From positions 1 through 62,503 of the IMG/VR virus record IMGVR_UViG_3300027834_000006: DNA of 62,503 nucleotides; one strand, written 5' to 3'. The translations under genes and the position numbers were made by a program. The stretch is from a virus. Lineage: Duplodnaviria; Caudoviricetes. The notes under the pieces are model-generated. The model did not search any database. It was not told the origin of the DNA and was given only the letters and a program-made list of their open reading frames with translations. Of the stretch, positions 9,975 to 28,854 are shown piece after piece. Every line of letters starts with the position of its first letter. The stretch's first letter is position 1.

Positions 9975-10283
9975 TTAATACTTCATCGCTTCTTCGAGCT
10001 GGTTTCTTTTTTGCTCGAATACATTTTTGTATTTCTGTGAAATAGACTTTTTCTTTTTTTGAGGTTCCGCGGTAGTGGTGGTACTGGGTCTCGCGCTGGT
10101 AGTTGTAGTGCTTGGTCTCATGCTGGTGGTAGTTGTGGTGCTAGGCCTCGCAGTAGTGGTTGTAGTAGTAGGCTTCGCAGTAGTAGTTGTAGTGGGAGCG
10201 CTTATCCCATGCGATTTTCTTCTTATGGCTTCTAGCGTTATTGGTTTGCCACCTATTTTTACCGTTCCTCGTAAACGTCCCAT
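9975..10283 (-). CDS. mucin-like Thr/Ser/Pro repeat protein with basic termini
   Basis: Five P(S)T4-6 runs holding 24 Thr with mixed Thr codons; AAGGGG RBS. Confidence 0.7.
   Translation of the reverse strand: MGRLRGTVKIGGKPITLEAIRRKSHGISAPTTTTTAKPTTTTTTARPSTTTTTSMRPSTTTTSARPSTTTTAEPQKKKKSISQKYKNVFEQKRNQLEEAMKY
10069..10196 (-). repeat. degenerate coding tandem repeat [A/M][K/R]P(S)Tn, five units
   Basis: Plus-strand gtagttgtagtg-type units separated by ggyctcg. Confidence 0.75.
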
Positions 10284-12766: not shown

Positions 12767-14059
12767 TCATACAGGGATATGCAGGCAATCTGTGGCCCAT
12801 TTTTTTATAGAATTAATGGGATAACAAGAACCCTCTATGAGCATTTCCTTGTAGAAATTATATGTTTCTAACTTCGGGCATTTGTCTATGGCCCTCTTCA
12901 AACAATCCCTGGCGGCAACAAAATCGCCCAATTGTCTATGTGCTAAACTCTGTAATCCCAAAAAACTACCCTCGCAATAATCGACATCTTCGGACTGATT
13001 CATTTTCCACTCACCAGAGAGATCCAATGCTTCATTGTATCTTTTATTTTCCAGAAGATAATGAACATATCGAACCAGCAAAACATTGCTAAAATAAGTA
13101 TACTTTTTTAACATGTCTCTACTACTATAGGTATCTAGGCTGGGAAAATGATTCATTTGTATATCTTTTATGTTGGCAATGAGAAGATCGTTTTCGTCAA
13201 GGGCACCAGCAATCTCTTCCCGCGATACCCCATCCAAACGCATGTCTGCATCGGGATTCTCCGATAAAAGAAAAAACATACACTTCTTATGGCCTGCATA
13301 GTCGAAAGAGTCCACTTGGAACCCGCACCGTGCGGCCAATGATTTGAATGTCCTGTATGAAAAAGTATAATTATGTGCAGATGACAAAAAGGCATCGGAC
13401 GCAATAAGTGGATACGGAAACATAACCGATGGTACTTCAACCAATGCCTGTCCCCCATCGTTCAAAAGCAAACGCACCGACTCCAATGTTTCGCCGGGAT
13501 CATACATGTGTTCTATAACATTACACATCACAACCAAATCATATTTTTTGCAATCTTTGTGGTCCTTGTGAAATCTGCCATGTTCAACCTCAATGCCATT
13601 GACCTTCATTGCCAATTCACAACTTCTCCTGTCGGGGTCCATACCGTATACCTCTGCTCCCATACTGCGCATACCCCTCATAAGCGTCCCCATACCGCCC
13701 CCAATCTCCAACACGGATTTCCCCTTCAGGTCATACCCGATTTCCTTCAACCAGTCCAATGTGTATACTGTTGTCATAACTCCATCCACAACCGCTGTAC
13801 CGGGAATTCCCGCTTGCAGTCTCGACTTGTATTTCATGGCGTAATCTTTGTCGTAAAAATCACGCTGGGTTTCCCTTGTCATCATTGGATTTTTGTATAC
13901 CATCCCGCAATCATCGCACACCACGTCTGTCTTATGATAAACCCTACCGTCTTCATCGTCTATAAAAACCAATGGCTGCCATGGTTTCTTGGTTCTTAGG
14001 GTAGAGCAACAAGAACTCCCACATATGATACAATCCCTGGTTTCTTCTTCGTATTTCAT
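12767..14059 (-). CDS. class I SAM methyltransferase with N-terminal Zn ribbon and C-terminal TPR-like helices
   Basis: CIICGS/CDDCG, VLEIGGGMG, YDLVVMCNVIEH.YDP and VEVP; architecture common in glycan-biosynthesis clusters; start at 14059 overlaps the upstream stop (ATGA). Confidence 0.8.
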   Translation of the reverse strand: MKYEEETRDCIICGSSCCSTLRTKKPWQPLVFIDDEDGRVYHKTDVVCDDCGMVYKNPMMTRETQRDFYDKDYAMKYKSRLQAGIPGTAVVDGVMTTVYTLDWLKEIGYDLKGKSVLEIGGGMGTLMRGMRSMGAEVYGMDPDRRSCELAMKVNGIEVEHGRFHKDHKDCKKYDLVVMCNVIEHMYDPGETLESVRLLLNDGGQALVEVPSVMFPYPLIASDAFLSSAHNYTFSYRTFKSLAARCGFQVDSFDYAGHKKCMFFLLSENPDADMRLDGVSREEIAGALDENDLLIANIKDIQMNHFPSLDTYSSRDMLKKYTYFSNVLLVRYVHYLLENKRYNEALDLSGEWKMNQSEDVDYCEGSFLGLQSLAHRQLGDFVAARDCLKRAIDKCPKLETYNFYKEMLIEGSCYPINSIKKWATDCLHIPV

Positions 14060-14700
14060 TTGAGTCTCCTTGAGGTTATGTGTCGAATAAACTGCTTTCC
14101 TATGAATTCTGTATACGCCGGAGGAATACATTCCTTCAAACCCTTAAAGTCCATCCAGTCAATTCCATACGCAAGAGGAGCATTTTTTATTGTTTTTGGC
14201 AAAATTCCAAGTTTTTTTCTTAATTTTCTGCTTGCCTGACTTGCTGTTGTCACCAATAGTGGAACCTGAGCATGATTACACTGCATCGCTACTTCAACGG
14301 GGAAAGATGTCTCAAAGTATCTATGCCTTTGGCAGCGCAAGCCAAACATTGATCCGCACAGCATTATAGGATCGTTAAGCTCTTTTTTTGCTCCAGCGAC
14401 ATTCTCAATGATATAGTGCTTCATGGATCGTATAAGCTTTTGCCTGACACTATTAATTGATTTTTCATGGTTGCCTCGAAATTCTTTAGGTGTTAAATGA
14501 CTATATGCTTGGCACGGTGGACTCGCGTGGATCACATCAAAGCCATCGAGCGGAAAATTCAAGGCATCTGCCAGATAAAATTCAAAAGGGTATCTCGGTT
14601 GGGGTTCATTATCTACACCAACAATTTCAAAGCCCGCCAAGTCATACCCCATGGAAGCTCCCCCAGACCCACAATATAAGTCTAATAATTTCAACTTCAT
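14056..14700 (-). CDS. DNA (cytosine-5) methyltransferase, short phage type
   Basis: LLDLYCGSGG (motif I), ASPPCQ (catalytic PC), IENV and QRHRYFE. Confidence 0.85.
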   Translation of the reverse strand: MKLKLLDLYCGSGGASMGYDLAGFEIVGVDNEPQPRYPFEFYLADALNFPLDGFDVIHASPPCQAYSHLTPKEFRGNHEKSINSVRQKLIRSMKHYIIENVAGAKKELNDPIMLCGSMFGLRCQRHRYFETSFPVEVAMQCNHAQVPLLVTTASQASRKLRKKLGILPKTIKNAPLAYGIDWMDFKGLKECIPPAYTEFIGKQFIRHITSRRLK

Positions 14701-16173: not shown

Positions 16174-16233
16174 GCTTGTTTATAGGTCAAGCCATGAATA
16201 ATTAGCCTGGCTTGTTTACAGATCAAGCCAGGA
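16174..16233. repeat. tandem pair of 24-bp palindromic repeats GCTTG-N9-CAAGC at the terL 3' end
   Basis: 16174-16197 gcttgtttataggtcaagccatga versus 16210-16233 gcttgtttacagatcaagccagga. Confidence 0.8.
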
Positions 16234-17988
16234 CTTACCGGTGGTTGTTTTCCCATAACCAAAGGTATCGTAATATAGGGGATTTTTTTTGCTAGGCTCT
16301 CTTTCGCGCGAGGGCTGCATTACGCCCAGGGCATCTATATTGGTCCCGCCATACTCCAATTGAATCCCCTTGATGCCAATCAAAAACGCCATTACACGGT
16401 CATCCTTGCCCTTCCCGTAGGCGCTCGCCCCCTGGCTGGTATCATCACGAACAAATATCATCATCTCGCGTACAAGCTCGGCACTGTGAATAATCACAGA
16501 TCCATTATTTACGCAGTATCTTCCATGTGTAAGAAGATCAGGTTTGGACTGTGCTGTTGTCATCCATCCCAATTGACTGTTGGAAAACTCATTTATAGAG
16601 TCACGAACAACTCTTCTTATGACGTTCCAATACCCAGCCTTCTGAATGGCAGATAAAACAGCATGGCCATAACCAAATACTTCAGGCACCAATAGCGCAT
16701 TATTGTATATAGTACCCAGGGCTACGGCATAATTACCCAGTACCTCCGCATCTACCTTGCCATGCCATTCCGCTGCTTGACAGGCAAGCCATCCCTGGCG
16801 CATATCCATGACCCGTAAAACTTCCAAACATCCAAAATCAGTACTACCCGGTTCACCCGATGACGGGTCTATAGACACAACATACCTTTCTCCCTCTACT
16901 GGTCTTTCCCATATCTTCAGGCTCCCCAACGATTCCTTCCTAATGATACTGCCATCTATCTCGCCCACACTAACAGGATCACTGCATTTTTGTAGATATT
17001 TTTTCAGCTTATCTCTATCGAAAACGGTTCTTCCGCTCACCACGAAAGCCTCATCATCCGTGGTCGGATACTGTTCGTGAAAATTCTCCAGTCCCGTCTT
17101 GAGAACATTGCCGCTCACGCCTTCACCCAAAAAAGAGATTTGATATCTTCGCCAATTGAGTTGTTCCAATGTGGCGTTGTGCACATCTCTCAACTCCACC
17201 TCTTCATCGTTGAAGGTGTCGAGCAGTTCTTCTCTCTCATTGCCCATCAGCGGGCGGGTGTAACCTTCGTGCTTCAACCAACTGAAAAATAAAGGTTTAA
17301 ATACACTTTTACCCGCGGTTGCCTTCTTCCATTCATCGTAAAATGGTTCGCCGTTACCAGCCATACCATTAGCCGTAGACTCGATCACAACGAATGTACC
17401 GGGCAAATTGAAGGTGGTGGGTACAACTGCTTTTCTGACAGCATCGGCATCCCTATAGAAGGCATACTCCGAAAAATGTATGAAATGATTTCCGGTACTC
17501 AACCCGGCCTTGTCGGTACAAGATACTGTTTTCATGGAAGACTTCAGTCCCATAGATCTGCCTGTTTTTGTAAGAGCTGTACTCGGAGCATCAAAAACAA
17601 GCCTGGAACCACTCTTGTACTTAACCATGGGTTTGAGTTGGCGGGGAAGATACTCATAAAATACATGAGACATATTATGTATATACTCACACCCTTTATC
17701 ATCAGCAGAAATAGTGATCCCCTGACGATGCGACTTCAAATGGCATTGCTGAAACATTCTTGATTGAACATACGTTGATACGCCATGTCTCCTTGCCTTG
17801 AGTATGATCAATAGCACCGGTTTCTTTTGCCCAATAAAGCCATTCCATACCCTATTTACCTCAACCTGAACATATCGATCATTGAAATCGAACTTCACCA
17901 ACCCCTCACCGGCCTGGATATACAATAAATTAGGCGAATAATAATCATAATTACCCAGGCGTTTCAAGTCGATTATTCTTTTTCCCAT
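16216..17988 (-). CDS. terL: terminase large subunit
   Basis: Walker A LKARRHGVST, Walker B HFSE, IESTANG, EQYP...EAF, nuclease SIDPSSG and DDRVMA. Confidence 0.95.
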   Translation of the reverse strand: MGKRIIDLKRLGNYDYYSPNLLYIQAGEGLVKFDFNDRYVQVEVNRVWNGFIGQKKPVLLIILKARRHGVSTYVQSRMFQQCHLKSHRQGITISADDKGCEYIHNMSHVFYEYLPRQLKPMVKYKSGSRLVFDAPSTALTKTGRSMGLKSSMKTVSCTDKAGLSTGNHFIHFSEYAFYRDADAVRKAVVPTTFNLPGTFVVIESTANGMAGNGEPFYDEWKKATAGKSVFKPLFFSWLKHEGYTRPLMGNEREELLDTFNDEEVELRDVHNATLEQLNWRRYQISFLGEGVSGNVLKTGLENFHEQYPTTDDEAFVVSGRTVFDRDKLKKYLQKCSDPVSVGEIDGSIIRKESLGSLKIWERPVEGERYVVSIDPSSGEPGSTDFGCLEVLRVMDMRQGWLACQAAEWHGKVDAEVLGNYAVALGTIYNNALLVPEVFGYGHAVLSAIQKAGYWNVIRRVVRDSINEFSNSQLGWMTTAQSKPDLLTHGRYCVNNGSVIIHSAELVREMMIFVRDDTSQGASAYGKGKDDRVMAFLIGIKGIQLEYGGTNIDALGVMQPSREREPSKKNPLYYDTFGYGKTTTGKSWLDL

Positions 17989-18581
17989 GACGGCGTCTCC
18001 ACTTCTATTGTGTCTGCTCCCTCGCGTATTTCTTCAAAGATTTTCTCACGTTCTTTTTTGTTCTTACCGGCGGTGAAACTATCGATGTATTTTTTTATGT
18101 CCAACGCCATCTTTGCGAGAATGGACTCGGGTACTTTATGCGAACAAAACATGGAATTAATCTCATTCGCCAAAGCCGCCATGGTTTTAACGTCGAGCAA
18201 TGAAGTTGAACCCAGAAGATAAATGATTATCTGTCGTTTGACAGCCGAATCCAGATCGGGTCTTTTCAATATAGCAACCATCCTGTCAAAGCGAAACTTC
18301 TCGGTATCCCGCAACATCTTCATTGCCATGTTTGTGGTGGTCTCAAAGTCCTTGTGGGCTACTGAAATTCTTGGGGCATTGTTCTTGGGGCTTTTAGATA
18401 TTGAATAATCATCACCCAACATACTATATTTATAGCCTTTGCGCATCTTACTAAACATCTTCTCCTTACACTCCTTGCAAATACGTTCGCCCCTCTCCCT
18501 TGAAGATAGAAACACATTGTTTTCATCGAGAGTCCTTCCGCATGCCTTGCATCTTTTTTCAGTCTGCATTTTCACCGCCAT
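17973..18581 (-). CDS. possible terminase small subunit, Zn-finger protein
   Basis: Overlaps the terL start; CKACG..CKEC; assignment by position only. Confidence 0.35.
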   Translation of the reverse strand: MAVKMQTEKRCKACGRTLDENNVFLSSRERGERICKECKEKMFSKMRKGYKYSMLGDDYSISKSPKNNAPRISVAHKDFETTTNMAMKMLRDTEKFRFDRMVAILKRPDLDSAVKRQIIIYLLGSTSLLDVKTMAALANEINSMFCSHKVPESILAKMALDIKKYIDSFTAGKNKKEREKIFEEIREGADTIEVETPSWEKE

Positions 18582-20499
18582 TCAATAGGGTTTTACTGTT
18601 TTTATAATTGTCGCTGATCCCATCCCCTATGAGGTCGTATAGGATTCTCAATCCATAGAAAAACTCAAAGATCTTCAACAGTTGGGCTATTTCTTTCTCC
18701 TCTCCATCACAGTAATCACCCAAACATCTTAGAACATTCTCTACCCCCATGCACCAGGACTGGATTACATGCATCGTAGCAAAATAGCACATCGGGTCAT
18801 GGAGGACTTCCATTCTAACCTTATTGGCGTAGCCGAGCAACTGCTGACGACCCGTTTGATCCAGATTCCCATCGTTATACATGCCGAACCCTTCCTCGCA
18901 ATCCACTAAAAATCTATCAATTGCAGCCCTGCTCCTGTCAATATAATCCCTTCCCTTGACAATCTGTGTATCAACCTTTTTTCTATCGCAATCTATTTTC
19001 TCTTTATCAATAACCAGCAGGCTGTCCAGAGTTTTCATGGGAGAGAACACTTCGTCCATATGCCTATTGATGGCATCTCGAAGAGGCATGATCTCTGTGC
19101 CCCTGATCAGAGCCCCACCCTCAGTGGCATTTATGCAAGTACCTTTCCAATTTGCTATGTCCAGCTCAAACCGTTTCAGCATTCCCACCCAAGTTTCCAG
19201 GGATTCAAGTTTTTGCCCGTTGTTCCCCATTACACTGGTTCTTTGCTGAATCAAAGGCGACCCCTTAAGGCCACTGCTGGCATGATCGGCGCCCTTCACA
19301 TGAGTCTTGCCGTCTGGAGCAAAAGCCAAATCCTGTCCTACCAATATGATCGGATCACATCCCATGAATACCGCCATCTGAAACGCCATATTGGTTACTG
19401 ACTTTCCCGTATTAAGAATACCCTTATCAAGATCCAACCATTTGAAATGTGCGAAATCACGAAACACAATCATCTTCTTCCCATGCCATTCATCGTAAAC
19501 CTGCGGCTTCACTACCGGACAAGCACCCAGCCACATCTGTTTCATAAATGCTTTTTTGTCGTCGGAGATCTGTTTGAAATGTTTACATGTGGTCAGATTT
19601 CTTTCAAGAGAACATACTATGTCTGGTATGATGGGAGTCTCATAATTAAAAAAGGTATTCAAGGATGCATCAGCCGCAAAAAATACTGCCCTGTCTTTAA
19701 TCTCGGGCAACAAATGAATGTTGTTGTTGAGTGATGGACCGGTGGCAACTATTACCGCAGGTTTTTCCTTGAATTGATCCCTTAACAAACCAACGCCGGG
19801 ATTGCCAATTATCGTTTCCATGTTCAGCAGCATATTATCTATTCCAGACCAGCTATCCAGGGGGTCATTGCCGTATGAACTCCTTATGTCGAAACATATT
19901 CTTTTGATTTCAGAACATGCTCTTTTATAATATTCTTTATTGAAACGAATAAGTATGGGATGTTCCACAAAATAGAATGAAGTGAATAGATTTCTCGCCA
20001 TGTCATTGATGAGACTGTATAGATGGTGATAAATATTGTTGGGGTCTTCTCCAACCACAAACCTTATGGCCGGATGTTCAAAAATACCAAACTTCTCGCC
20101 TCCGCTTGAAGTCAGATGTAATGCCCTGTTTTCTATAAATTTTCTGAATAACTGTATGTCATTCTCAATGACAATAAATAGGCTGGTTTTACCGGAAAAC
20201 TTATGGATGATATTGGCGAGTTCATAGCCCATCCCCACGCCCAACACAACCACCACGGCAGGCGACTGAATGTCTTCGGATAAAACCGAATCTACAAAGA
20301 ACCTTGCTTGCCCCGCCGGATCATCCTTGGAATGAATCAACCACTGCTGCCCTCCACGCTGAACAGTGCATGTGCATTCGTCTGCTTTATTGCTGGGCGC
20401 CACCTTTACAGAGTAATCATCGTTCATTCCCTTCATTTTTTCAACAATATGCGGATAGTGTTTTCTCAGTTGTTCCATGTTCACATCAATTATGCTCAT
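18559..20499 (-). CDS. maf: Maf (motility-associated factor, DUF115/MptE-like) nonulosonate glycosyltransferase
   Basis: IHSK.DP, LGVGMGYE, IVATGPSL..N, AADAS, PDIV.SLER, GKSV.NMA..A..MGCDPIILVGQDLAF, CINATEGGA.I.G; 646 aa with helical C-terminus. Confidence 0.85.
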   Translation of the reverse strand: MSIIDVNMEQLRKHYPHIVEKMKGMNDDYSVKVAPSNKADECTCTVQRGGQQWLIHSKDDPAGQARFFVDSVLSEDIQSPAVVVVLGVGMGYELANIIHKFSGKTSLFIVIENDIQLFRKFIENRALHLTSSGGEKFGIFEHPAIRFVVGEDPNNIYHHLYSLINDMARNLFTSFYFVEHPILIRFNKEYYKRACSEIKRICFDIRSSYGNDPLDSWSGIDNMLLNMETIIGNPGVGLLRDQFKEKPAVIVATGPSLNNNIHLLPEIKDRAVFFAADASLNTFFNYETPIIPDIVCSLERNLTTCKHFKQISDDKKAFMKQMWLGACPVVKPQVYDEWHGKKMIVFRDFAHFKWLDLDKGILNTGKSVTNMAFQMAVFMGCDPIILVGQDLAFAPDGKTHVKGADHASSGLKGSPLIQQRTSVMGNNGQKLESLETWVGMLKRFELDIANWKGTCINATEGGALIRGTEIMPLRDAINRHMDEVFSPMKTLDSLLVIDKEKIDCDRKKVDTQIVKGRDYIDRSRAAIDRFLVDCEEGFGMYNDGNLDQTGRQQLLGYANKVRMEVLHDPMCYFATMHVIQSWCMGVENVLRCLGDYCDGEEKEIAQLLKIFEFFYGLRILYDLIGDGISDNYKNSKTLLNGGENAD

Positions 20500-20523
20500 T
20501 CAGTATCCCCTAATAAAGATATT

Positions 20524-21558
20524 TTATGTTCCAATCATACAATCAGCCCCATTATAGACCACAATATTCGCTTCCTTGCCATAAACATTTTTTACATGCA
20601 AAAGAAATTCCTTCATTTCTTTGCACAATAAAACGCTTACGTCAAAATATTCCTGAATAGCTTCGTAAGAAACTTTATCTGTAACAAACGCCAGTGTTTT
20701 ACAGTACAATTCTTTTTCAAAGATACCATCATACGTAGCCGGGGTCAGGCCATTGGGCTGTTGAAATAAATAATGCACTCCTATTCCCTCCGGCATGGGA
20801 CTCCAGATACAAATCGTTCCTCCATTACGGACCACACTTTTGTTCTTGCAAACCTGCAAGGCATTCATAGACTGAAGAAAATCAATATTCTTGAACAGGG
20901 GAATTAGAATAGCAACATCCATATTATCACGTATGCATACCTCGTAATTTTGTTTAACAACACCAAAAACCTGTTCCCTGACCAACAATGGATCGCCCAC
21001 AAAGAGATCGACCACCTCCCCCTTATCATTAATAACAGAATTCACCAAAACATCTACATAGCGTACAGATTCCGTCATAGAATCCTCAATGCAATCCCCG
21101 GAAAAACCGTGAAAGTCCTGCACGCTTTTATAGTCGGACAACCCGGGACAGATTATTTTACCCCCGCCGCTGATCCCGGCATGAGTATGCGGCAATGCAG
21201 TGCCTACGGCTATAACATAACCCGACAAGGGAAACCGCCTAAGAGGATTGTGGTGATACACCCTTAATTCACTGGCAAAAAAACCCAACCGTCTTTCCAT
21301 GACTCGCATAGAAGCAGCCTGGTGCATGCCCGACGCCACAACAACAACAGTCTTATCAACACCTACTCTCTGCACGACATAATCCACAACACAGAACGCA
21401 ACGTGTGTATCGGGTCGAGTTAAGTCATCAATGACAATAGTGATTGTTTCATTGCTGGGCAGTGAAATCCAGCTTATCCTATCGTATACTTCCTGATTAG
21501 ACAATTGCTCTGCGGTTCCATCGCCCATTTTTACTTCCGTAATGTTAAACATAGCCAC
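20524..21558 (-). CDS. LarA (lactate racemase) superfamily racemase/epimerase
   Basis: IDDLTRP, ASGMH, HHNP and PHTHAGISGGGKIICPG match LarA D.TRP / G.H / PH..AG.SGG.K...PG; C-terminal GGTI....PEGIG. Confidence 0.75.
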   Translation of the reverse strand: MAMFNITEVKMGDGTAEQLSNQEVYDRISWISLPSNETITIVIDDLTRPDTHVAFCVVDYVVQRVGVDKTVVVVASGMHQAASMRVMERRLGFFASELRVYHHNPLRRFPLSGYVIAVGTALPHTHAGISGGGKIICPGLSDYKSVQDFHGFSGDCIEDSMTESVRYVDVLVNSVINDKGEVVDLFVGDPLLVREQVFGVVKQNYEVCIRDNMDVAILIPLFKNIDFLQSMNALQVCKNKSVVRNGGTICIWSPMPEGIGVHYLFQQPNGLTPATYDGIFEKELYCKTLAFVTDKVSYEAIQEYFDVSVLLCKEMKEFLLHVKNVYGKEANIVVYNGADCMIGT

Positions 21559-22198
21559 CCCTCCGAGCGAAAGCTTCCGCTATGGCAAAATCCTCGTCAA
21601 CATTCAAATTATACCCTCTTTCTTTGGGTATTTCAATGAAATGATAGGCGGGAAATCGGCATTGATCATATGCCTTTAGAAGAAATTCCCTGCTATATAC
21701 ATATAGGTTCCCACTGTGAACGCGTGGACAATCAGAACCATAACCACCATAGTTTATCATATAGCTCACCTTGAGATTGTGATCCGTATACGAAGTCCCC
21801 AAACAAGTATTGCACGCTACCCTGTCAAGTTCACCCAGCATCAGATCTACATCCCCGGCATACCGCAAAGGATTGGTGACCTGGAATAACATGACATACT
21901 CGATCTCATCACGACAATCTTTCTCCGTCTCTACCAGGGCATGTTGAACCGACAGGGTATGAGGGGCAAAATCCTCACAAAGTATCCTTGGCCTCTGGAC
22001 CCTGATAAACCCAGAGGGGACATTAAAAGAATGAGGAACATCACTGGAAAAAACCATTACAGCAAATTTGTTTTTGATTGTTTCGATGAAATCAGTTGTC
22101 CATTGATAAAGAGGTTTGCCACAAAACTCTTTAAAACTCTTCCCGTGAACTCTCTTGCTGAATCCCTTAACCGTTACTAAAGCCATTACATTTGCCAT
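21545..22198 (-). CDS. neuA: acylneuraminate cytidylyltransferase (CMP-nonulosonate synthetase)
   Basis: KGFSKRVHGKS...CGKPL..W, SSD, RP..L..D, LFQVTNPLR, SGNLY and N..EDF..AE. Confidence 0.8.
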   Translation of the reverse strand: MANVMALVTVKGFSKRVHGKSFKEFCGKPLYQWTTDFIETIKNKFAVMVFSSDVPHSFNVPSGFIRVQRPRILCEDFAPHTLSVQHALVETEKDCRDEIEYVMLFQVTNPLRYAGDVDLMLGELDRVACNTCLGTSYTDHNLKVSYMINYGGYGSDCPRVHSGNLYVYSREFLLKAYDQCRFPAYHFIEIPKERGYNLNVDEDFAIAEAFARRGGYV

Positions 22199-22811
22199 TG
22201 TTTCCTCCTATATCGTGTTTCATTTTATGGTATATGTACCCCTTGCCCAAAAATCTGTTGGTTATCCATCCTCTGCCCATACACGGGAACACCCATACCC
22301 CGTTGGTTGACTCTATCAATTCAGTACATCTGTGCCTTGGAACATCACGGCTCTCAAAAAGGTTGGATAGTTTGGCGGGTACAACATAAGAAATATAGAT
22401 ACCCCCCGTTTTCATTACCCCACAAACATTCCTCCATATCAGTCTCAGTTCATCCCGGTCAAAGTGTTCTTCCAGGCCATAAGAAAACACCAGGTCAAAT
22501 GTTTTTTCCTCATAGGGAAAAGGCTTGAGAACATCTCCCTTTTTAAAATTGTTAATCAACCCGCTAAAAAGTTCACGTTGATCCATCTTATGGGCTTGAA
22601 CTTCATAGAGCTCAAACATGGTAGATATTGTGGCACGACCGCAGCCTATCTCCAGGGATTTTTTCCCTCTAAGATTTTTATCGAGAGAATATTTTTCGTA
22701 CAGTTTCTTCATAACATCAAAGTTCTTAACAAATGGATCTATGTCAAACGGCGCCTTGCCGCCTCCGCGCTTATCCCAAAACTTTGCCCATCCATTATTT
22801 GAAGAGTTCAT
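22167..22811 (-). CDS. class I SAM-dependent methyltransferase
   Basis: LEIGCGRA, GDVLKPFPY..TFDLVFSYGLEEHF, MKTGG. Confidence 0.8.
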   Translation of the reverse strand: MNSSNNGWAKFWDKRGGGKAPFDIDPFVKNFDVMKKLYEKYSLDKNLRGKKSLEIGCGRATISTMFELYEVQAHKMDQRELFSGLINNFKKGDVLKPFPYEEKTFDLVFSYGLEEHFDRDELRLIWRNVCGVMKTGGIYISYVVPAKLSNLFESRDVPRHRCTELIESTNGVWVFPCMGRGWITNRFLGKGYIYHKMKHDIGGNNGKCNGFSNG

Positions 22812-23970
22812 TTATTTTTTCTCCTATTTTAATTCCCGCCATACCATCTCCATAAAGAGAAGAAGCAGGATAACCATCAACCGAAAACTGACGTTCTACG
22901 GCATTCACGATAGACCCCGCATCACAATCAACACTTATGACGTTTTTGCCATGCTCCCTACCCTTTTGCCTGTTCCCTATATTAACAGCCGGGACACCCA
23001 AAAAAGACGCTTCTCTTATGCCGGTAGAGCTATTCCCAATTATGCCTTTGCTCTTCAACAAAAGCGCCCCGAAGTCAGCCGGATCGATATGGCGAATAAA
23101 CTGTATGGGAAAATCTCGATGACGCGATACTTCCATCCTCCACATTTTTGCTATAGCTTCGCCACCGGGGTCTATGTTATTCCAAAAAACAATCTTTGAG
23201 ATCTCAATTCTTCTAATGGCTTCGGAAAATTCCTTCAGATTATGCAAGAAATTATCATCTTTGGTGTCTGCATGATACAATACAATAACGTAATTATAAG
23301 AACACACATTAACGCGATCTCCGGTTCCGCGAAGTTTTAATAGGTTGTTTAAATATCGGGGCAATTTATCAGTTGTGGTATATCTGCCCTTTTTTGAATC
23401 CTTGTTTCCTATATGCTCATTGTCACACAACAAATCCATCGAAGGGCATCCGAAACAATATACATTTGAATGATCGTCGGGTTTCATTTTGTGGATCCGT
23501 TTCTCAGCCGCTTTGGTAGCAGGGAAATGAATATCGGATAACTGAGTGACCGCGTTTCTAACCTTATCATCAATGCTCCCGGTTTTTTCACCGCCCTGTA
23601 AATGTATCAAGGGAATATTGACATAAGAAGCCGCAGTTGCCATAGCCAACACTTCAAACCTATCGGCTATAACCAACACCGCATCTGGTGTAAGTTCCTT
23701 CAAAATAGTCGTGGCCTCTATGATTCCCAATCCTACAGTCAAAGACATCTTTTCAAGTCCATCCCCCTCCACGGCAAGTGCAATATCATGAGTGGCAATC
23801 CCCGGGAAATCCCAATACATATCAGCAGACGCGTTCCCATATTTATAAAGACGCATACTGCCCCCCAGGACCAAATGTACTTCAATGTCGGTATCTTCCC
23901 GGAAGTATCGAATAATCGTTTTTACCTTATTGTACGATGATCTATTCGTTATCAATATTGCAATTTTCAT
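22795..23970 (-). CDS. neuC: hydrolysing UDP-GlcNAc 2-epimerase (NeuC/LegG family)
   Basis: T.RSSY, ADRFE.L, IPLIHLQGGE.TGSIDD..RNAVT.LSD.HF, GCPSMD, IGNSSTGIREA, NIG.RQ.GRE and LYGDG. Confidence 0.9.
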   Translation of the reverse strand: MKIAILITNRSSYNKVKTIIRYFREDTDIEVHLVLGGSMRLYKYGNASADMYWDFPGIATHDIALAVEGDGLEKMSLTVGLGIIEATTILKELTPDAVLVIADRFEVLAMATAASYVNIPLIHLQGGEKTGSIDDKVRNAVTQLSDIHFPATKAAEKRIHKMKPDDHSNVYCFGCPSMDLLCDNEHIGNKDSKKGRYTTTDKLPRYLNNLLKLRGTGDRVNVCSYNYVIVLYHADTKDDNFLHNLKEFSEAIRRIEISKIVFWNNIDPGGEAIAKMWRMEVSRHRDFPIQFIRHIDPADFGALLLKSKGIIGNSSTGIREASFLGVPAVNIGNRQKGREHGKNVISVDCDAGSIVNAVERQFSVDGYPASSLYGDGMAGIKIGEKINELFK

Positions 23971-25730
23971 TTTTTGTCTGATCCCCCATTTGCTATCTTG
24001 AGAAGCTCACTATCAGAAAGTTTGTAATCCATTGGTATGAGAATTTCCTGCATTTTCGAACCTTCACGGTACATTGTAACGCCTTTCACTTCATGTAAAT
24101 GCTCCAGCAATAAACCCCCTAATTCATCGCAGGGAAAATCTTTCTTCAGTAATATGGTTTTTGAAATTGCACTGTCAATATATTGCTGAGCAGTTATCTG
24201 TACCTCCATGTGTTCTCTGGGAGAAATATCATATCCCCCTACAAAATACTCATGCGGCTCGCCTTTGATTATCTTCTCCCTGAATAATTCATCCATCTCC
24301 ACCACCGAAGCCATCTCTGATTTACCATCATTATTATTGGCATTGTAATGTCTCTTGTAGATAGGACAAAAAATGGGTTCAACACCATTGGAAACTCCGG
24401 CAACAATTGAAGTTGTACCAGTCGGTTGCATGGAGAGTATGGTTCCGTTTCTAAGACCATATTTCTTGATACCGGATCTGATTCTTCGTGGAAGCCGTTT
24501 GACAAATTCTCCCTCCAAATGTTTCTCGGCATTAAATTTCTCAAAGGAACCTCTTTCTCGGGCCAATCCAATCGAAGCATTGTAGGCATAGTCTCTGATA
24601 TTCAGAAAAAGGGAATCCATGAACTCAAGGCTTTTTTCTGAACCGTATTCCTCTATGCCCATCTTCAGCATCAAGTAATGGAGGCCCATAACCCCCAGGC
24701 CGATCTGTCGGGTTTGATGGGCATTGAGCTCTATGGTGCTCAGGGGATAATGTGAAATATCCAAAACATCATCCAGGAACCTGACTGCAAGCCCTATAGT
24801 GCGTTCCAATTTATTCCAGTCTACGTCACTGGTTTTTTCGTCATACATCTCAGATAGGTTAATGCTACCCAAACAGCACGATCCGTATACGGGAAGCGGA
24901 ATCTCTCCGCATGGATTAAGCGTATAAACATCATGGACATACCACAAAGGATTATACCTGGCGATAGTATCCAAATTAATAAGCCCGGGATCTCCGCAAT
25001 CCCATAAATTCTTGACTATATAATCCCACAATTCCACCGCCTTTACTGTATCATACACCTTGTTCTTAAAAACCAAATCCCATTCCTGATTGTTCTTAAC
25101 AGCTTTCAGGAATTTATCCGTTATGCCTATGGAGATATTGAAGTTCTGGAGCTCTCCCTCTTCTACCTTACTGCCAATAAACTTGTATATTTCTGGATGA
25201 TCGATCCGCAGAATTCCGATACATGCTGCTCTTCGTTGTCCTCCCAATTCTACGGTAGATAGGATCGAATTCAGTGCCTTCATAAATGACACCACCCCTG
25301 AAGAGCAACCGCCCTTACCGACAATGGGAGTGCCGACAGGTCTGAGGTTGCTGAAATTTATTCCAATGCCTCCCCCGGTAGAAGAAATCATCAATGCATC
25401 CTTGTATAGCTCTGCTATGCTTTCTATATTATCATCTACGCCCAGCGCGTAGCAATTGATGAGCATCCCTTTGTTCCTGCTGGCATTTCTCAGCACCCTT
25501 CCCCCTGGAACAAAAAGGGAATCGGTCATAATTTTCTCGAACTCTGCGATTACTTTCTCGTCCTCTCGCAGTCCCACTGCCTTGGCAACCCGATTGCAAG
25601 CAGTTTCCCAGAGCTTTTCGTTCTTATCGAAAGCATAACGTAAATCAAATATCTTCTTCCTATATCCCGTCAAGTCTGTGGCTCCGTCAAGCATACACTC
25701 ATCAACACTACAATCAACACATTCGACCAT
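23967..25730 (-). CDS. nrdJ: class II (adenosylcobalamin-dependent) ribonucleotide reductase
   Basis: PGGRVL, NCY, GGGIG.NFS.LRP, NPCGEIPL..CCLGSINL, GLGVMG, QPTGT.S, GVEP and DSAISKT; no beta-subunit gene recognised. Confidence 0.88.
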   Translation of the reverse strand: MVECVDCSVDECMLDGATDLTGYRKKIFDLRYAFDKNEKLWETACNRVAKAVGLREDEKVIAEFEKIMTDSLFVPGGRVLRNASRNKGMLINCYALGVDDNIESIAELYKDALMISSTGGGIGINFSNLRPVGTPIVGKGGCSSGVVSFMKALNSILSTVELGGQRRAACIGILRIDHPEIYKFIGSKVEEGELQNFNISIGITDKFLKAVKNNQEWDLVFKNKVYDTVKAVELWDYIVKNLWDCGDPGLINLDTIARYNPLWYVHDVYTLNPCGEIPLPVYGSCCLGSINLSEMYDEKTSDVDWNKLERTIGLAVRFLDDVLDISHYPLSTIELNAHQTRQIGLGVMGLHYLMLKMGIEEYGSEKSLEFMDSLFLNIRDYAYNASIGLARERGSFEKFNAEKHLEGEFVKRLPRRIRSGIKKYGLRNGTILSMQPTGTTSIVAGVSNGVEPIFCPIYKRHYNANNNDGKSEMASVVEMDELFREKIIKGEPHEYFVGGYDISPREHMEVQITAQQYIDSAISKTILLKKDFPCDELGGLLLEHLHEVKGVTMYREGSKMQEILIPMDYKLSDSELLKIANGGSDKK

Positions 25731-25736
25731 TTTTTT

Positions 25737-26321
25737 TTACTCCTGTATTTCAAGAGAATCTATTTGTTCTTTGGGTTTGCGAGTTTTTTTGTCGGTATCC
25801 CATGAACCAGCTAGCATAGCACTGAAATAATGTTGTGCCGTTTCAATCACGCGTCTCAATAATCGCATGTCATCTTGTTGCATGTCTCTTACACTAAGAA
25901 GTTTACGTATTTTGCCAGCATTAAATACACCATACAATTGACCTATGGCGGCGTTGAGGAACCCGGGGGTCAACGTAGTAACATTAAAAAATGAAAGGCT
26001 GACACACTGGTCTTTTTTCATGGCAACCTCAATACGGTCATAAACCTTCTGGCCTTCGCTTGGTACAATACATACCGGATGTCCTATGATTTCAAACACA
26101 GACAATCCCAAGCTCCTATACCTCATTGCTCCACTCCTGTATTCCAAAAAAGCGGGAGTCGTCTTAGGCGGCGGGCCGTCCCGCCCTTTCTTTTTTAGCA
26201 CACAACCTAAACAACAAGTACAACCAGGATAGTCTTCATAGGGATGCTCTTTGTGAAAATCGCAATCCTTACGCGTTATAACGGTTTCATAGTCATCTGG
26301 ATTATGTTCAATTAACATCAT
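25737..26321 (-). CDS. STAS-like DUF4325 domain protein with Cys-rich N-terminal extension
   Basis: GQKVYDRI...V.LSF.NV..LT..FLNAAIGQLYG; possible internal start at MRYRS. Confidence 0.65.
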   Translation of the reverse strand: MMLIEHNPDDYETVITRKDCDFHKEHPYEDYPGCTCCLGCVLKKKGRDGPPPKTTPAFLEYRSGAMRYRSLGLSVFEIIGHPVCIVPSEGQKVYDRIEVAMKKDQCVSLSFFNVTTLTPGFLNAAIGQLYGVFNAGKIRKLLSVRDMQQDDMRLLRRVIETAQHYFSAMLAGSWDTDKKTRKPKEQIDSLEIQE

Positions 26322-26351
26322 TAACCTCCAAACAAAATAACATCAAAATGC

Positions 26352-27017
26352 TCACCGGACACCCAGCCCCATACGCATCTTGACCAGGTCTATGGCATAC
26401 CCGTAAAGATGCAATCCTTTTGAGGCCACAATCATTTCTCCGTCTTCTACCCCGATATTCTTTGCCATATATTCTTTGACCTGCTGGAGTCCGGCAAGAT
26501 TCGCCGGGAACCCACCCCATAAATCCCAACTTCTGAAATACATGATAAAATGAAGCTTGTCATCTTTAATCCGTGTGTCGATATGTCTCAGACAGGGGGG
26601 ATCTTCCAGGTCGATGTCTGAAGGCTGACCTATTTGCATAATAAGCTGGTTTGTACCGAAACCAAGTTTTTTATAACGATCGATCACCTTGTCCATTGAT
26701 AGCAGGAGACGTTCCCCGTAAGTGTATTGTTCATTGTCTTCCTTGATTCCGGTCATAAGGTAACGGGCTGCATATTCGTCAACATATTCCTGGGTAGTGG
26801 GAGGGGGTATTCCCAGCCATTGCGGAATGTCAGGCACATGGGGCATGGCTCCTGGGTGTTTGATGTGTATGGTGATATAGTCAAATTCCCTTCGCACTTG
26901 CCCTTCGAAACTTCCCAAGTCTATTTTATACTCGGCTACGTCTTTTTCCAGAATGCGACTCATTGTCTGAAACCAGGCATCCGGGATGGTAGTCGCCTCA
27001 ATTGAAATCGTGTCCAT
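26352..27017 (-). CDS. thyA: thymidylate synthase, short (archaeal-like) ThyA
   Basis: YTYGERL, DPPCLR, YFRSWDLWGGFPAN and LHLY; start ATG 27017 after AAGGAG. Confidence 0.85.
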   Translation of the reverse strand: MDTISIEATTIPDAWFQTMSRILEKDVAEYKIDLGSFEGQVRREFDYITIHIKHPGAMPHVPDIPQWLGIPPPTTQEYVDEYAARYLMTGIKEDNEQYTYGERLLLSMDKVIDRYKKLGFGTNQLIMQIGQPSDIDLEDPPCLRHIDTRIKDDKLHFIMYFRSWDLWGGFPANLAGLQQVKEYMAKNIGVEDGEMIVASKGLHLYGYAIDLVKMRMGLGVR

Positions 27018-27021
27018 TATG

Positions 27022-27858
27022 TTACTCTCCTTTCGTTTCGGGGAGTTCTTCAAGATACCGATCTTTGTATTTCTCTTTTGTTTCCAGTTCCCTGAATTGC
27101 ATGCCCAGTGCACCGTTACCCAACAACTCACTGGCTTCTTTGGCATCCCTGCAAAGAGCAGCCAGCTTTTCCGGTCCATATGCTATCTCTGAGGTTGGCC
27201 CGTAGGATCTTCCTATCTTTATATGTACCTCTATGTATTTTACGCCCATACCCATAACAATCGCGGGGACTATCCTGTTATAACAATGATCGGAATAACC
27301 GATTTCAACATTGGAACCCTGCGAAAACGTGTCCCGTAAAGTATCAATTCGGTTCAAATTAGCCTCGTTTGGGTATGTCGGGTACAGTGAGACACAATGC
27401 ATTAGAACGATTTTGTCTCCTGGAAGATCCTGCTTGATCAAATCGATTGCTGACATATCGTTCCACATTCCAGTAGAAAGAAAAATGGTTTCCCAGTAAT
27501 GTTTTTTGATACGTTCCAGCATTTTTTCGGTTATCTGCCCGCTTGCAATTTTGATGTTCTTGACGTTTAACTCGGCCAGAATATCTACTATATGCGGGTG
27601 GTTCGCAGTTACGGCAAACTTCATACCCAGCTCTTCGGTCAGGTTTTTGAAAAGCATTAGGTTGTCAGTCGTCAATTGATCGCCTTTGTATTTTTTGACT
27701 TTATGCTGCCATCGCTCACCCATATAGTCAGTATCGAACATCTGTAATTTGAAATAGTGGGCACCGGACCGTGCCGCGTTTGCCAGGGTCTCTCCCAAAA
27801 GATCATAATTCCCATTCCAGTAATTAGCCGGATCACAAATTATCTTTATTTCTTGCAT
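27022..27858 (-). CDS. neuB: N-acetylneuraminate synthase family (NeuB), lacking C-terminal SAF domain
   Basis: N.WNG, K.Q.F, IKIASG, LSTGM, LMHCVSLYPT, ANL..I..L, GYSDH and IE.H. Confidence 0.85.
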   Translation of the reverse strand: MQEIKIICDPANYWNGNYDLLGETLANAARSGAHYFKLQMFDTDYMGERWQHKVKKYKGDQLTTDNLMLFKNLTEELGMKFAVTANHPHIVDILAELNVKNIKIASGQITEKMLERIKKHYWETIFLSTGMWNDMSAIDLIKQDLPGDKIVLMHCVSLYPTYPNEANLNRIDTLRDTFSQGSNVEIGYSDHCYNRIVPAIVMGMGVKYIEVHIKIGRSYGPTSEIAYGPEKLAALCRDAKEASELLGNGALGMQFRELETKEKYKDRYLEELPETKGE

Positions 27859-27881
27859 GTACTGTCCTCCTATTATAAAAA

Positions 27882-28142
27882 TTAATCTAAATTTAATTTA
27901 TGGTTTCTTATGCGTCCCGCAAGGGAAAGAGGAAATTGCGGTGTATTTTTTTTTGTTCTTGGCACATGGAGGTTATCGAGCTCTCTGTGTGCATGCTCTA
28001 TCTCTGTCAATGCTACCCTTAATTTAGTAGATACTTCTGTATGGGAATTTTCTATCTTTCTTGCAACCGATAGAGGAACTGCTTTTTCTTTTTTCGAAAC
28101 GTATCTACCATAAAAAGCATTAAAATCCGATATTTCGGTCAT
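27882..28142 (-). CDS. hypothetical protein
   Basis: ATG 28142 after GAGGGG; packed in the operon. Confidence 0.5.
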   Translation of the reverse strand: MTEISDFNAFYGRYVSKKEKAVPLSVARKIENSHTEVSTKLRVALTEIEHAHRELDNLHVPRTKKNTPQFPLSLAGRIRNHKLNLD

Positions 28143-28146
28143 CTCG

Positions 28147-28530: not shown

Positions 28531-28541
28531 GTTTCCTCCTT

Positions 28542-28826
28542 TCATATCAATTGTACCGTGTGCTTAAATTCATGCTCGAAGCCACATTTGTCACAGTGAC
28601 AATAGTAGCCGATGCTAAAGCAACCGTCCGAATCTGTGCGTATTTCGTAGTCTTCACGGAGGGTATCTTTTAAAATGGTCGGCTTTGTCGCTTCGTTCAT
28701 TAGTTTCATATAGTCATCGCTTGATATTTTGCCATATTCTTTTCTTGCTTTTTTGAACGTAGCGCTCTGCTTTTCTGTTGCTATTTTTTTACATCGCGGG
28801 CATACCCCCCAACTATCTGCGCTCAT
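28542..28826 (-). CDS. hypothetical zinc-binding phage protein
   Basis: MSAD.W.VCPRC...TLREDYEI...C.KCG; AAGGAGGT RBS. Confidence 0.65.
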   Translation of the reverse strand: MSADSWGVCPRCKKIATEKQSATFKKARKEYGKISSDDYMKLMNEATKPTILKDTLREDYEIRTDSDGCFSIGYYCHCDKCGFEHEFKHTVQLI

Positions 28827-28854
28827 CTTTATACCTCCTTTTTTAATTTAAGTG

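Follow-up and report, generated by a model that had tools for sequence, protein, structure and literature searches.

Nonulosonate synthesis genes and a Maf-type transferase joined to the packaging genes of an uncultured marine podovirus

The window, i.e. the whole stretch of DNA analysed, is the complete genome (62.5 kb) of a podovirus, an uncultured marine phage. Based on profile, fold and motif evidence, a putative self-contained route from UDP-GlcNAc to a CMP-nonulosonate is supported, together with a Maf-type transferase; this agrees with the enzymatic reading of the first-pass annotation for a phage lacking flagellin. Maf enzymes are otherwise known solely for bacterial flagellar glycosylation; finding one joined to packaging genes suggests, but does not prove, that these phages glycosylate a protein of their own. 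No phage-encoded Maf was found among 50,697 deposited phages or in literature searches.

Gene order and enzymes of the cassette

Open reading frames were found at the positions proposed for neuB and for the neuC to maf series, all on the minus strand. These and the neighbouring genes discussed below are as follows:

27022..27858, minus strand: SAF-less NeuB-family nonulosonate synthase, 278 aa (PF03102, E 1.6e-36; SAF domain absent)
22795..23970, minus strand: hydrolysing UDP-GlcNAc 2-epimerase, NeuC/LegG type (Epimerase_2, E 2.6e-52)
22167..22811, minus strand: class I SAM-dependent methyltransferase, presumed tailoring enzyme (Methyltransf_11, E 2.1e-6; Methyltransf_11/25/31, E 2e-6 to 1e-4)
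21545..22198, minus strand: CMP-nonulosonate synthetase, NeuA/LegF/PseF type (CTP_transf_3, E 4.5e-4, weak alone, plus family profile)
20524..21558, minus strand: shortened homolog of LarA-family (nickel-pincer-nucleotide-dependent) 2-hydroxyacid racemases/epimerases (Lar_N, E 2.4e-11; malate racemase NF052593, E 5.9e-23)
18559..20499, minus strand: full-length Maf-type nonulosonate protein O-glycosyltransferase, 646 aa (PF01973, MptE-like, E 7.3e-40; NF050051, PseD, E 6.5e-45)
17973..18581, minus strand: 202-aa ORF that overlaps both maf and terL, assigned as small terminase from its position only, or possibly a Maf accessory factor
16216..17988, minus strand: large terminase, translationally coupled to the cassette (phrog_24361, E 1.8e-14; phrog_2, E 5.2e-11)
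12767..14131, minus strand: 454-aa methyltransferase, possibly a protein methyltransferase (Methyltransf_23, E 1.4e-19)

For the enzymes that the first-pass annotation wished to see confirmed by profiles, matches were obtained to PF03102 (NeuB), Epimerase_2, CTP_transf_3, which is weak alone, and MptE-like/PseD (Maf). The genes from NeuC to Maf overlap or abut one another, as well as NrdJ upstream and the possible terS and terL downstream. The junctions, in nt with overlaps as negative values, are NrdJ/NeuC -4, NeuC/methyltransferase -17, methyltransferase/cytidylyltransferase -32, cytidylyltransferase/LarA -14, LarA/Maf +24, Maf/202-aa ORF -23 and 202-aa ORF/TerL -16, i.e. overlaps or gaps of at most 24 nt throughout. 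The overlapping run from neuC to larA followed by maf was as first described, but neuB does not adjoin neuC: three unrelated genes intervene, namely a thymidylate-synthase-like gene, a STAS-like DUF4325 gene and NrdJ. The position of the 202-aa ORF fits its earlier designation as terS, but no Pfam, NCBIfam or PHROG match was obtained; in the protein atlas it matched unnamed viral clusters only (scores 0.90-0.91), and it is kept in most relatives at 23-34% identity.

The best PDB match of NeuB was 6ncs, a short sialic acid synthase of 290 aa (E 2.8e-18). The motifs KxQ, NIKIASGQ, STGM, MHCVSLYP, GYSDH and ExH are invariant across five family members. At one column the clade always carries Gln (Q108), against Asp in 6ncs and Glu in 8h2c; three catalytic Glu positions of NeuB-type synthases are named in PMC8208679. 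NeuC scored 275.1 bits against TIGR03568 (NeuC_NnaA), over the 235.9 cut-off, and WecB gave only 55 bits. A profile of five cytidylyltransferase sequences matched the PDB in five cases, all of them CMP-Neu5Ac synthetases (best 6ifd, E 3e-16), and the motifs LVTAK..S.R...KN and LFQPTNPLR are invariant.

The absence of a dehydratase, aminotransferase and flagellin, claimed earlier, held: among the 84 ORFs scanned with Pfam no dehydratase, aminotransferase, acetyltransferase or further glycosyltransferase was seen, and a PF00669 search of the whole record for flagellin was empty. Because a 4,6-dehydratase, an aminotransferase and an N-acetyltransferase are not encoded, the sugar may be of the Neu5Ac type. 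Against this assignment, NeuC-type enzymes also serve the legionaminic pathway, and NeuB is far under both NCBIfam equivalog cut-offs (NeuB 109 bits vs 399.65, PseI 99 vs 340.25).

The LarA-type enzyme looks intact. Its predicted model (pLDDT 84.3) gave listed fold matches at E <= 1e-3 that were all of the LarA family (TM up to 0.77), and D45, R48, H79, H124, K134 and H150 do not vary among 15 sequences from phages and bacteria. PMC11770544 names R75, H108, H174, K184 and H200 for LarA, which match these invariant columns; the words "phage", "virus" and "sialic" are absent from this article on the LarA superfamily. The first-pass annotation had spoken of a methylated or epimerised sugar. This needs refining, as the LarA-type enzyme and an NAD-type D-2-hydroxyacid dehydrogenase found at its position in a cousin contig (C229) point to 2-hydroxy acid chemistry rather than simple sugar epimerisation.

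The predicted model of Maf (pLDDT 85.9) keeps the complete three-domain architecture, and its top fold match was the Magnetospirillum Maf 5mu5 (E 9.8e-20), over about 700 aligned columns and the whole length. The possibility that the protein is a pterin diphosphokinase was rejected, since the archaeal pterin kinase fold fits the central domain only (E 1.6e-4).

Distribution among phages

Maf lies upstream of terL in 12/12 close relatives, taken as loci whose TerL shares 52% identity or more and whose sequence extends for 700 nt or more upstream of terL; TerL identity within the clade is 52-59%. NeuB, NeuC, methyltransferase, cytidylyltransferase, LarA-like enzyme and Maf occur in the same order in all five related loci reaching far enough upstream, at 26-52% identity (NeuC 44-47%; methyltransferase, in the same position, 32-39%). 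More distant TerL relatives (25-39% identical) had cassette genes in 0/66 loci, 36 of which have at least 2 kb of upstream sequence. As the synteny recurs in every related contig of sufficient length, the arrangement is far beyond chance, and judged from these comparisons the cassette is clade-defining and under constraint. The alternative that it is a degenerating host fragment, absent from related phages, was ruled out by its presence in all close relatives examined.

Database searches returned 64 NeuB proteins in a phage-only clade, nine LarA-like proteins, likewise phage-only, and about 39 Maf clusters at >=43% identity in a phage-only clade, on contigs of up to 57-70 kb. In the Maf tree the clade of the window is monophyletic (SH-aLRT 100).

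A second, unrelated phage lineage (lineage 2), with different terminase and portal families, carries a Pse-type set and Maf directly upstream of terL in 8/9 scanned loci. This set comprises a PseB-like dehydratase, NeuB, a formyltransferase-like protein and mostly GNAT and DegT; terS is inside the cluster in two loci. The two phage clades fall on opposite sides of the Maf tree, each with SH-aLRT 100. In C229, a distant cousin, the genes for NeuB, NeuC, methyltransferase, CTP transferase and 2-hydroxyacid dehydrogenase sit between the portal and capsid genes. Nonulosonate genes with maf beside terL, which the first-pass annotation had proposed looking for in viruses, were thus found in both lineages, and comparison of these loci supports the view that nonulosonate modules recur independently inside morphogenesis modules.

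The 454-aa methyltransferase is co-inherited with the cassette: it is present in 13/13 clade loci with sequence downstream of terL vs 0/66 sister loci. A homolog occurs in C229 (25% identity). Its C-terminal TPR matches are weak (TPR_2, E 8e-4, under the cut-off).

Target of the transferase

It is about an even chance that the block serves the phage as its own protein-sialylation module, is expressed along with the packaging and head genes and has a phage late or virion protein as acceptor. As judged by homology and fold, NeuC would act on a UDP-sugar to release ManNAc (or a related 2-acetamido sugar). From this sugar and PEP the SAF-less NeuB would make a nonulosonic acid, the cytidylyltransferase would convert this to the CMP-sugar, and the full-length Maf would transfer the nonulosonate to protein Ser/Thr. 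Tailoring may involve the methyltransferase and 2-hydroxy acid chemistry, the LarA-type enzyme using the nickel-pincer cofactor of the host. The acceptor would be a phage-encoded late or virion protein, for which the best candidate is:

9975..10283, minus strand: 102-aa mucin-like protein, candidate Maf acceptor, directly after the portal gene

This protein is 34% Ser+Thr, with 21 S/T within a 30-residue window, arranged in tandem units in which a stretch of 4-6 Thr precedes a basic residue and Pro. S/T/P-rich homologs are syntenic in relatives. An S/T-rich post-portal protein was found in 4/9 clade loci plus the window and L038, vs 0/28 sister loci, in which an ORF with at least two [ST]4 runs was sought. 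The virion as presumptive target, one of the two options given in the first-pass annotation, is strengthened by the coupling to terS/terL, the independent recurrence beside terminase or portal genes in other phage lineages and the clade-specific mucin-like protein encoded in the head module. If true, either the particle or an assembly protein would carry negatively charged sugars.

Several observations count against sialylation of the phage's own protein. The poly-Thr protein is patchy, being absent or weak in clade members L042, L045 and L039, and no comparable protein was seen within the 10 kb examined of lineage 2 loci; moreover, its co-occurrence with Maf counts as one phylogenetic event. 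The Q108 column of NeuB presumably corresponds to one of the catalytic Glu residues mentioned above. LarA-like activity would depend on the host, since the Pfam scan of 84 ORFs found no LarB/C/E. Genes of nucleotide metabolism, for NrdJ and the thymidylate-synthase-like protein, adjoin the cassette too, which makes late timing less certain.

To our knowledge, every characterised Maf acts on flagellin, and a bacterial relative (L033), whose full context was examined, lies in a canonical flagellar legionaminic island (FliW-FliD-flagellin-Maf-Leg pathway). These facts and the full three-domain architecture of the phage Maf favour re-glycosylation of a host surface protein (flagellin, pilin or S-layer) in the infected cell, by which flagellotropic superinfection would be blocked, progeny kept off debris or motility altered. 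This is possible but rather unlikely. Because flagellin receives its glycans in the cytoplasm, prior to export, filaments already assembled would be unaltered; no bacterial Maf is more than 41% identical to the phage Maf clade; and three different arrangements join the module to genes for terminase, portal or capsid, a position atypical for host-conversion morons. No integrase was found among the 84 ORFs scanned with Pfam, nor were lysogeny genes seen, which together with the lack of flagellin is in keeping with a virulent phage; such a phage would gain less from the slow remodelling of host flagella. Retargeting to a non-flagellin acceptor is mechanistically plausible, since according to 10.1101/2023.12.03.569772 it is TPR domains or small adaptor proteins that determine which acceptor a Maf uses.

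An auxiliary metabolic cassette raising CMP-nonulosonate for host glycans (LPS, capsule or general O-glycosylation), with Maf as passenger or broad-acting enzyme, is improbable. Nonulosonate genes are widespread in bacterial surface-glycan loci and the neighbours include NrdJ and the thymidylate-synthase-like gene, but within the cassette Maf is conserved best (42-52% identity across the clade vs 23-46% for the biosynthetic enzymes) and is kept also in lineage 2, and no polysaccharide-type sialyltransferase or flippase was seen among the ORFs scanned. Attachment of the sugar to phage DNA as a hypermodified base evading restriction would account for the position beside packaging genes. The neighbourhood includes a thymidylate-synthase-like gene (26352-27179) and DNA methyltransferases, and in lineage 2 locus L012 the PseB-like gene is separated from maf by a DNA methylase, but this reading is very improbable given the full-length fold of a Maf protein glycosyltransferase, the thymidylate-synthase-like gene in 0/5 long related loci (tblastn, 1e-5) and no hydroxymethyl-pyrimidine kinase or DNA glycosyltransferase seen among the ORFs scanned.

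Comparison with known systems

Bacterial flagellar Maf systems have in common with the phage a full-length Maf fold beside CMP-nonulosonate genes, and in the phage, too, a specificity element would presumably be required for the choice of acceptor. They differ in that the module here belongs to a virulent-looking phage without flagellin or flagellar genes and is fused to terS/terL, the route is of the three-enzyme NeuC/NeuB/NeuA type rather than a full Leg or Pse pathway, the LarA-type enzyme was seen in 0/9 bacterial Maf loci, and Maf forms its own clade.

De novo synthesis of CMP-Neu5Ac by NeuC, NeuB and NeuA is known from E. coli K1 and Neisseria meningitidis. The phage has the same three families in one co-directional array, with NeuC above the equivalog cut-off and a cytidylyltransferase profile matching only CMP-Neu5Ac synthetases, whereas its NeuB lacks the SAF domain and is far under the NeuB equivalog cut-off. 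A polysialyltransferase or lipooligosaccharide sialyltransferase is lacking; the product would instead go to protein Ser/Thr via Maf, which for Neu5Ac is reported only for promiscuous Mafs in engineered settings in 10.1101/2020.06.03.131540.

Compared with the LarA superfamily (5huq, 6d6z, 9eia), the phage enzyme shares the fold and retains the residues for catalysis and for the cofactor but is about 80 residues shorter, forms a phage-only clade (about 344 aa, at most 25% identity to bacterial members) and is embedded in a sugar-nucleotide/Maf operon with LarB/C/E not encoded.

In mycobacteriophages, virion glycosylation employs GT-A/GT-B glycosyltransferases and host nucleotide sugars. Their capsid and tail proteins are glycosylated by phage-encoded glycosyltransferases; PMC11256854 is among the papers that cite this work. 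Glycosylation genes adjoin structural genes in both cases, with the particle of the phage itself as presumed target, but the phage described here brings its own predicted nonulosonate pathway and a Maf-family transferase.

Organisation of the genome and of the sugar cassette

The record is that of a complete virus with direct terminal repeats, its prefix and suffix being identical over 127 nt. Among sequencing runs, two marine metagenome DNA sets were listed as holding it, one of them perhaps its source, and no RNA set. Based on PHROG and Pfam scans the phage is an SU10/P22-like podovirus, with a capsid just 22-26% identical to those of the nearest deposited phages. A tRNA scan of the window gave no tRNA gene, and none of the 84 ORFs scanned encodes an integrase.

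Features of the phage genome outside the sugar cassette
2815-3447, SU10-type adaptor (PHROG/Pfam)
8099-9034, major head protein (PHROG/Pfam)
9975-10283, poly-Thr protein of 102 aa directly after the portal gene, candidate acceptor
10303-12063, portal (PHROG/Pfam)
12767-14131, minus strand, 454-aa methyltransferase with weak C-terminal TPR matches, between terL and portal
16216-17988, terminase large subunit, TerL (PHROG/Pfam)
48608-49267, sigma factor, within the plus-strand replication block
59606-62395, internal virion protein (PHROG/Pfam)
30462-31199, 35334-35786, 37542-38051, 38398-39468 and 43727-44176, LPD29 paralogues (domain match)

The cassette consists of genes for NeuB, NeuC, a methyltransferase (MT), a cytidylyltransferase (CTPt), a LarA-like protein and Maf, upstream of terL. 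All of the genes named in the first-pass annotation are present where it placed them, on the minus strand, and their families were confirmed by HMM. The series needs one correction, in that neuB does not directly precede neuC: a thymidylate-synthase-like gene, a STAS-like gene and NrdJ intervene. From NrdJ through NeuC, MT, CTPt, LarA-like, Maf and ORF202 (a 202-aa ORF between maf and terL, 17973-18581) to TerL, neighbouring genes overlap by 4-32 nt, the single exception being a 24-nt gap. ORF202 exists as annotated, while its designation as terS derives from position; no family was matched in Pfam, NCBIfam or PHROG, and the protein atlas returned unnamed viral clusters only. The region 15500-34500 contains 14 terminator-like sites against 14.1 in shuffles, which is no excess, and its many promoter-like matches were uninformative.

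The thymidylate-synthase-like gene is of archaeal type (26352-27179, minus strand; TIGR03283 E 5e-27, far below the cut-off). At its longest, the ORF shares 158 nt with neuB, and the gene was not found in the relatives examined. A STAS-like DUF4325 protein (25737-26321, minus strand) is encoded between this gene and NrdJ.

Elsewhere, the DnaG-type primase is apparently split, with a zinc-ribbon domain at 41633-42112 (plus strand) and the catalytic core and Toprim at 29356-30303 (minus strand), about 12 kb apart. The LPD29 (large polyvalent protein associated) domain occurs in five paralogous proteins scattered through the early region. A PspA/IM30 family protein (42791-43480, plus strand; E 1.7e-31) represents a membrane-stress/remodelling gene unusual in a phage. 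Laminin_G_3 (concanavalin-A-like lectin) domains were identified in three tail-region proteins (1025-1918, 1932-2810 and 4904-5695, minus strand), which could possibly be receptor-binding or glycan-binding fibres.

Cassette enzymes and the predicted sugar

The NeuB-like protein matches PF03102 with an E of 1.6e-36. Its barrel motifs are kept in the clade of close relatives, GYSDH and ExH being invariant, as is a Gln in the column occupied by Asp in 6ncs and Glu in 8h2c, which is probably one of the proposed catalytic Glu positions. At 278 aa the protein stops after the barrel; the SAF domain is absent and there was no PF08666 match. The closest structure is 6ncs, a 290-aa SAF-less synthase, and SAF-less NeuBs are also described from environmental bacteria (PMC8208679). 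The models used to sort NeuB proteins into Neu, Leg or Pse types gave ambiguous scores (TIGR03569, 109 bits against a cut-off of 399.65; TIGR03586, 99 against 340.25). A profile search placed the protein in a separate phage-only clade with 64 relatives, after which bit scores fall from at least 209 to at most 163.

NeuC scored 275.1 bits with TIGR03568, above the cut-off of 235.9, as against 55.4 bits with TIGR00236 for the non-hydrolysing WecB, which is below 210. The MT belongs to the class I methyltransferase family. As a single sequence CTPt fell below the Pfam cut-off for CTP_transf_3 (20.5 against 22.6 bits). A profile of its five-member family (A3) matched CMP-Neu5Ac synthetases in all five of its PDB matches, the best with an E of 3e-16, and the protein carries the P-loop-like and QPTSPLR-type motifs of CMP-nonulosonate synthetases.

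In the central MptE-like/DUF115 domain of Maf, PF01973 was matched with an E of 7.3e-40 (137 bits against a cut-off of 34.6); the match to Maf_flag10_N was weak (20 bits against 23.5). The top Foldseek match of the model (pLDDT 85.9) was 5mu5, a Magnetospirillum Maf (E 9.8e-20), aligned at full length over 705 columns with a TM of 0.56-0.57, whereas the HPPK structures 8sbu and 8sd5 (archaeal pterin kinase) cover about 220-290 columns in the central domain only, with an E of about 1e-4. This difference identifies the protein as a Maf and not an MptE kinase. Its predicted activity, from these homologies, is to move nonulosonates from CMP donors onto Ser/Thr.

The model of the LarA-like protein (pLDDT 84.3) matched only LarA-family structures at E <= 1e-3, with a TM of up to 0.77. 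Residues D45, R48, H79, H124, K134 and H150 do not vary among the 15 sequences compared, of which 8 are from phages and 7 from bacteria. These columns match the Arg, Lys and His that bind the cofactor in LarA1, as well as its two catalytic His; of the former, the Lys tethers the cofactor, the His is a nickel ligand and the Arg lies in the DxTRP motif (PMC11770544). Nine relatives of 342-348 aa form a phage-only clade, beyond which identity is 25-27%. None of the nickel-pincer cofactor genes LarB, LarC and LarE was encoded among the phage ORFs scanned. LarC was found in two of three bacterial MAGs holding related Mafs, including the Thermodesulfobacteriota MAG that contains a contig of a cousin phage (C229); such a host, which binning only hints at, could supply the cofactor.

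The enzymatic core is well supported, on sequence and structure matches, as a putative phage-encoded CMP-nonulosonate route plus Maf. A dehydratase and an aminotransferase were absent among the ORFs scanned, as had been noted at first, and so were an acetyltransferase and any other glycosyltransferase. Based on the completeness of the pathway a Neu5Ac-like sugar is favoured; a legionaminic-type sugar is possible if the host supplies a di-N-acetyl precursor.

Conservation and recurrence in other phages

Scanning viral contigs with the single Maf sequence gave no relative, and scanning with an alignment gave 24 loci. The Maf search returned about 39 clusters at an identity of at least 43%, on contigs of up to 57-70 kb; bacterial Mafs reached at most 41%. 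The gene order determined by tblastn in loci L002-L011 was NeuB-(NrdJ)-NeuC-MT-CTPt-LarA-Maf-(ORF202)-TerL-MT/TPR-g211-portal-scaffold-MCP. All six cassette genes were present in the five loci extending far enough upstream (5/5).

A scan with a TerL profile, from which 80 of 130 relatives were kept, yielded 14 loci with TerL at least 52% identical (the clade). Of these, every one of the 12 that extend 700 nt or more upstream carries Maf, the other two having no upstream sequence, and the 454-aa methyltransferase is present in 13 of the 13 with downstream sequence. Neither the cassette genes nor this methyltransferase were found in any of 66 sister loci with TerL 25-39% identical, 36 of which have at least 2 kb upstream. 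The cassette is neither a passing nor a degenerating host fragment, since it is kept in all close relatives long enough to show it.

Twelve further viral loci carry distant Mafs; 101 of their 123 ORFs were Pfam-scanned, L016, L018 and L020 being left out. Eight of the nine scanned loci represent a phage type unrelated to that of the window (lineage 2). Its portal is of the Phage_portal+Mu F kind, its TerS is of gp3 type, and its terminase has a T7-like nuclease domain, matched below the cut-off in some loci. At 1e-5, neither TerL nor portal nor MCP of the window had a match in these loci. All eight have a pseudaminic (Pse)-type set immediately upstream of Maf, made up of a PseB-like dehydratase, a short NeuB and a formyltransferase-like gene, mostly together with GNAT and DegT, and with CTP_transf_3 where the locus extends far enough. 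Downstream, Maf is followed by a terminase-sized gene and then the portal, and in two loci (L013, L015) terS lies inside the sugar cluster. In another (L019) a small ORF between the PseB-like gene and maf has a sub-threshold Acb2/Tad1-hairpin match. The ninth locus (L023) represents a third setting among viruses and encodes CTP_transf_3, DegT, GT2, radical SAM/SPASM, NeuB (314 aa) and a short Maf (501 aa) in that order at 5128-11356, adjoining a ribonucleotide reductase with a TSCPD domain, an RF-1-domain protein and dUTPase.

A Maf tree was built from 40 rows: L023, 8 rows from the clade, 9 from lineage 2, 4 from bacterial loci and 18 chosen among the 120 listed database proteins, after exclusion of rows that were partial, duplicate or weak. 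Both phage groups were monophyletic, each with an SH-aLRT of 100, and they fall on opposite sides of the tree. The window's clade grouped with two short Thermodesulfobacteriota MAG contigs and two Deltaproteobacteria-labelled proteins, and lineage 2 was placed among Bacillota-type Mafs. Two monophyletic phage groups this far apart indicate at least two captures of Maf by phages.

The cousin C229, a 38.9-kb contig in the Thermodesulfobacteriota MAG, is distantly related to the phage of the window (tblastn identities: TerL 36%, portal 37%, MCP 41%, 454-aa methyltransferase 25%). Its sugar genes lie between portal and capsid at about 17951-23661, in the order portal, short NeuB, NeuC, three small ORFs, MT, CTP_transf_3 and a D-isomer 2-hydroxyacid dehydrogenase (PF02826 E 1.6e-48), which occupies the position of the window's LarA-like gene. 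There is no Maf on the contig. An HNH ORF and a 100-N run break up the capsid gene. That a 2-hydroxyacid dehydrogenase stands in for a racemase-type enzyme suggests a role for a 2-hydroxy acid in the pathway, possibly as the source of a lactyl- or glyceryl-type substituent, which the MT could also modify. Both the closest non-clade Mafs and the cousin contig come from a Thermodesulfobacteriota MAG, which hints at Thermodesulfobacteriota as host, binning of phage contigs not being proof.

Candidate target and comparison with known Maf systems

The poly-Thr protein is mucin-like: 34% of its residues are Ser or Thr, stretches of 4-6 Thr recur in tandem with a basic residue and Pro after each, and the protein ends in a basic helical tail. 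Syntenic small proteins in L003, L004/L010, L005/L038 and L041, and more weakly in L007/L043 and L039, have in common an N-terminal Gly/Lys motif and an S/T/P-rich centre; in L042 and L045 the post-portal ORF is without both. At least two runs of at least four S/T occur in this ORF in 4 of 9 clade loci, in the window and in L038, as against none of 28 sister loci (one has a single run), an association that counts as one evolutionary event and not as 28 independent tests because the clade is one lineage. In complexes predicted for Maf and the poly-Thr protein the runs scored 0.00, 0.35 and 0.00, with the partner poorly folded; these scores speak neither in favour of binding nor against it.

What determines the specificity of Maf is either a TPR domain or GlfM, a small adaptor encoded in cis (10.1101/2023.12.03.569772). 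The 454-aa methyltransferase, with its weak TPR matches, and ORF202 are therefore candidate specificity factors; the former may otherwise methylate a protein of the virion.

From this context, the target is about as probably as not a late or virion protein of the phage. That it is host flagellin or another surface protein is unlikely, though a serious rival: Maf enzymes are, to our knowledge, known solely as flagellin modifiers, while the complete record has no Flagellin_N match, in agreement with the initial observation, and the neighbours of Maf are terminase and sugar-nucleotide genes with no flagellar or flagellin-glycosylation locus. It is improbable that the module serves as a metabolic supply for host glycans, and attachment of the sugar to DNA as a hypermodification deserves hardly any credence.

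The fullest version of the virion-protein reading is put forward tentatively, at rather less than even confidence. Several unrelated phage lineages would have independently captured Maf and a complete nonulosonate pathway, wired into packaging/head operons, to O-sialylate their own particles. In the clade the acceptor would be the poly-Thr protein and the sugar of Neu5Ac type, with a methylated 2-hydroxy-acid-derived substituent made via a phage nickel-pincer enzyme. If true, it would give the first example each of a phage virion coated with nonulosonate, of a Maf substrate other than flagellin and of a LarA enzyme from a virus. Coating phage proteins with charged nonulosonates may recur as a strategy among environmental phages; it could affect how particles adsorb, how stable they are, whether they stick to mucus or other particles and how well they evade receptor decoys. 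The compact set (SAF-less NeuB, short LarA and a Maf found outside a flagellin context) is also of glyco-engineering interest.

Glycosylation of phage particles is, as far as we know, documented in very few systems. No description of a phage-encoded Maf or a nonulosonate-plus-Maf cassette was found in the literature searched, in which subscription journals were thinly covered, and tblastn of Maf gave no match in 50,697 deposited phage records, from which the window's own or near records were possibly excluded. What is added here is a clade defined by a self-sufficient sialic-type pathway plus Maf beside the terminase, with parallel cassettes in unrelated phages. Among nine bacterial Maf loci fetched, one (L033) is a textbook flagellar island with FliW, FliD, flagellin, Maf, NeuB and a cytidylyltransferase, together with the full legionaminic set of nucleotidyltransferase-CBS, dehydratase, aminotransferase, NeuC-type epimerase and hexapeptide acetyltransferase. 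Unlike the phage cassette, none of the nine contains a LarA-like gene. By this comparison, the phage module is a derivative that has been pared down, re-tailored and re-located.
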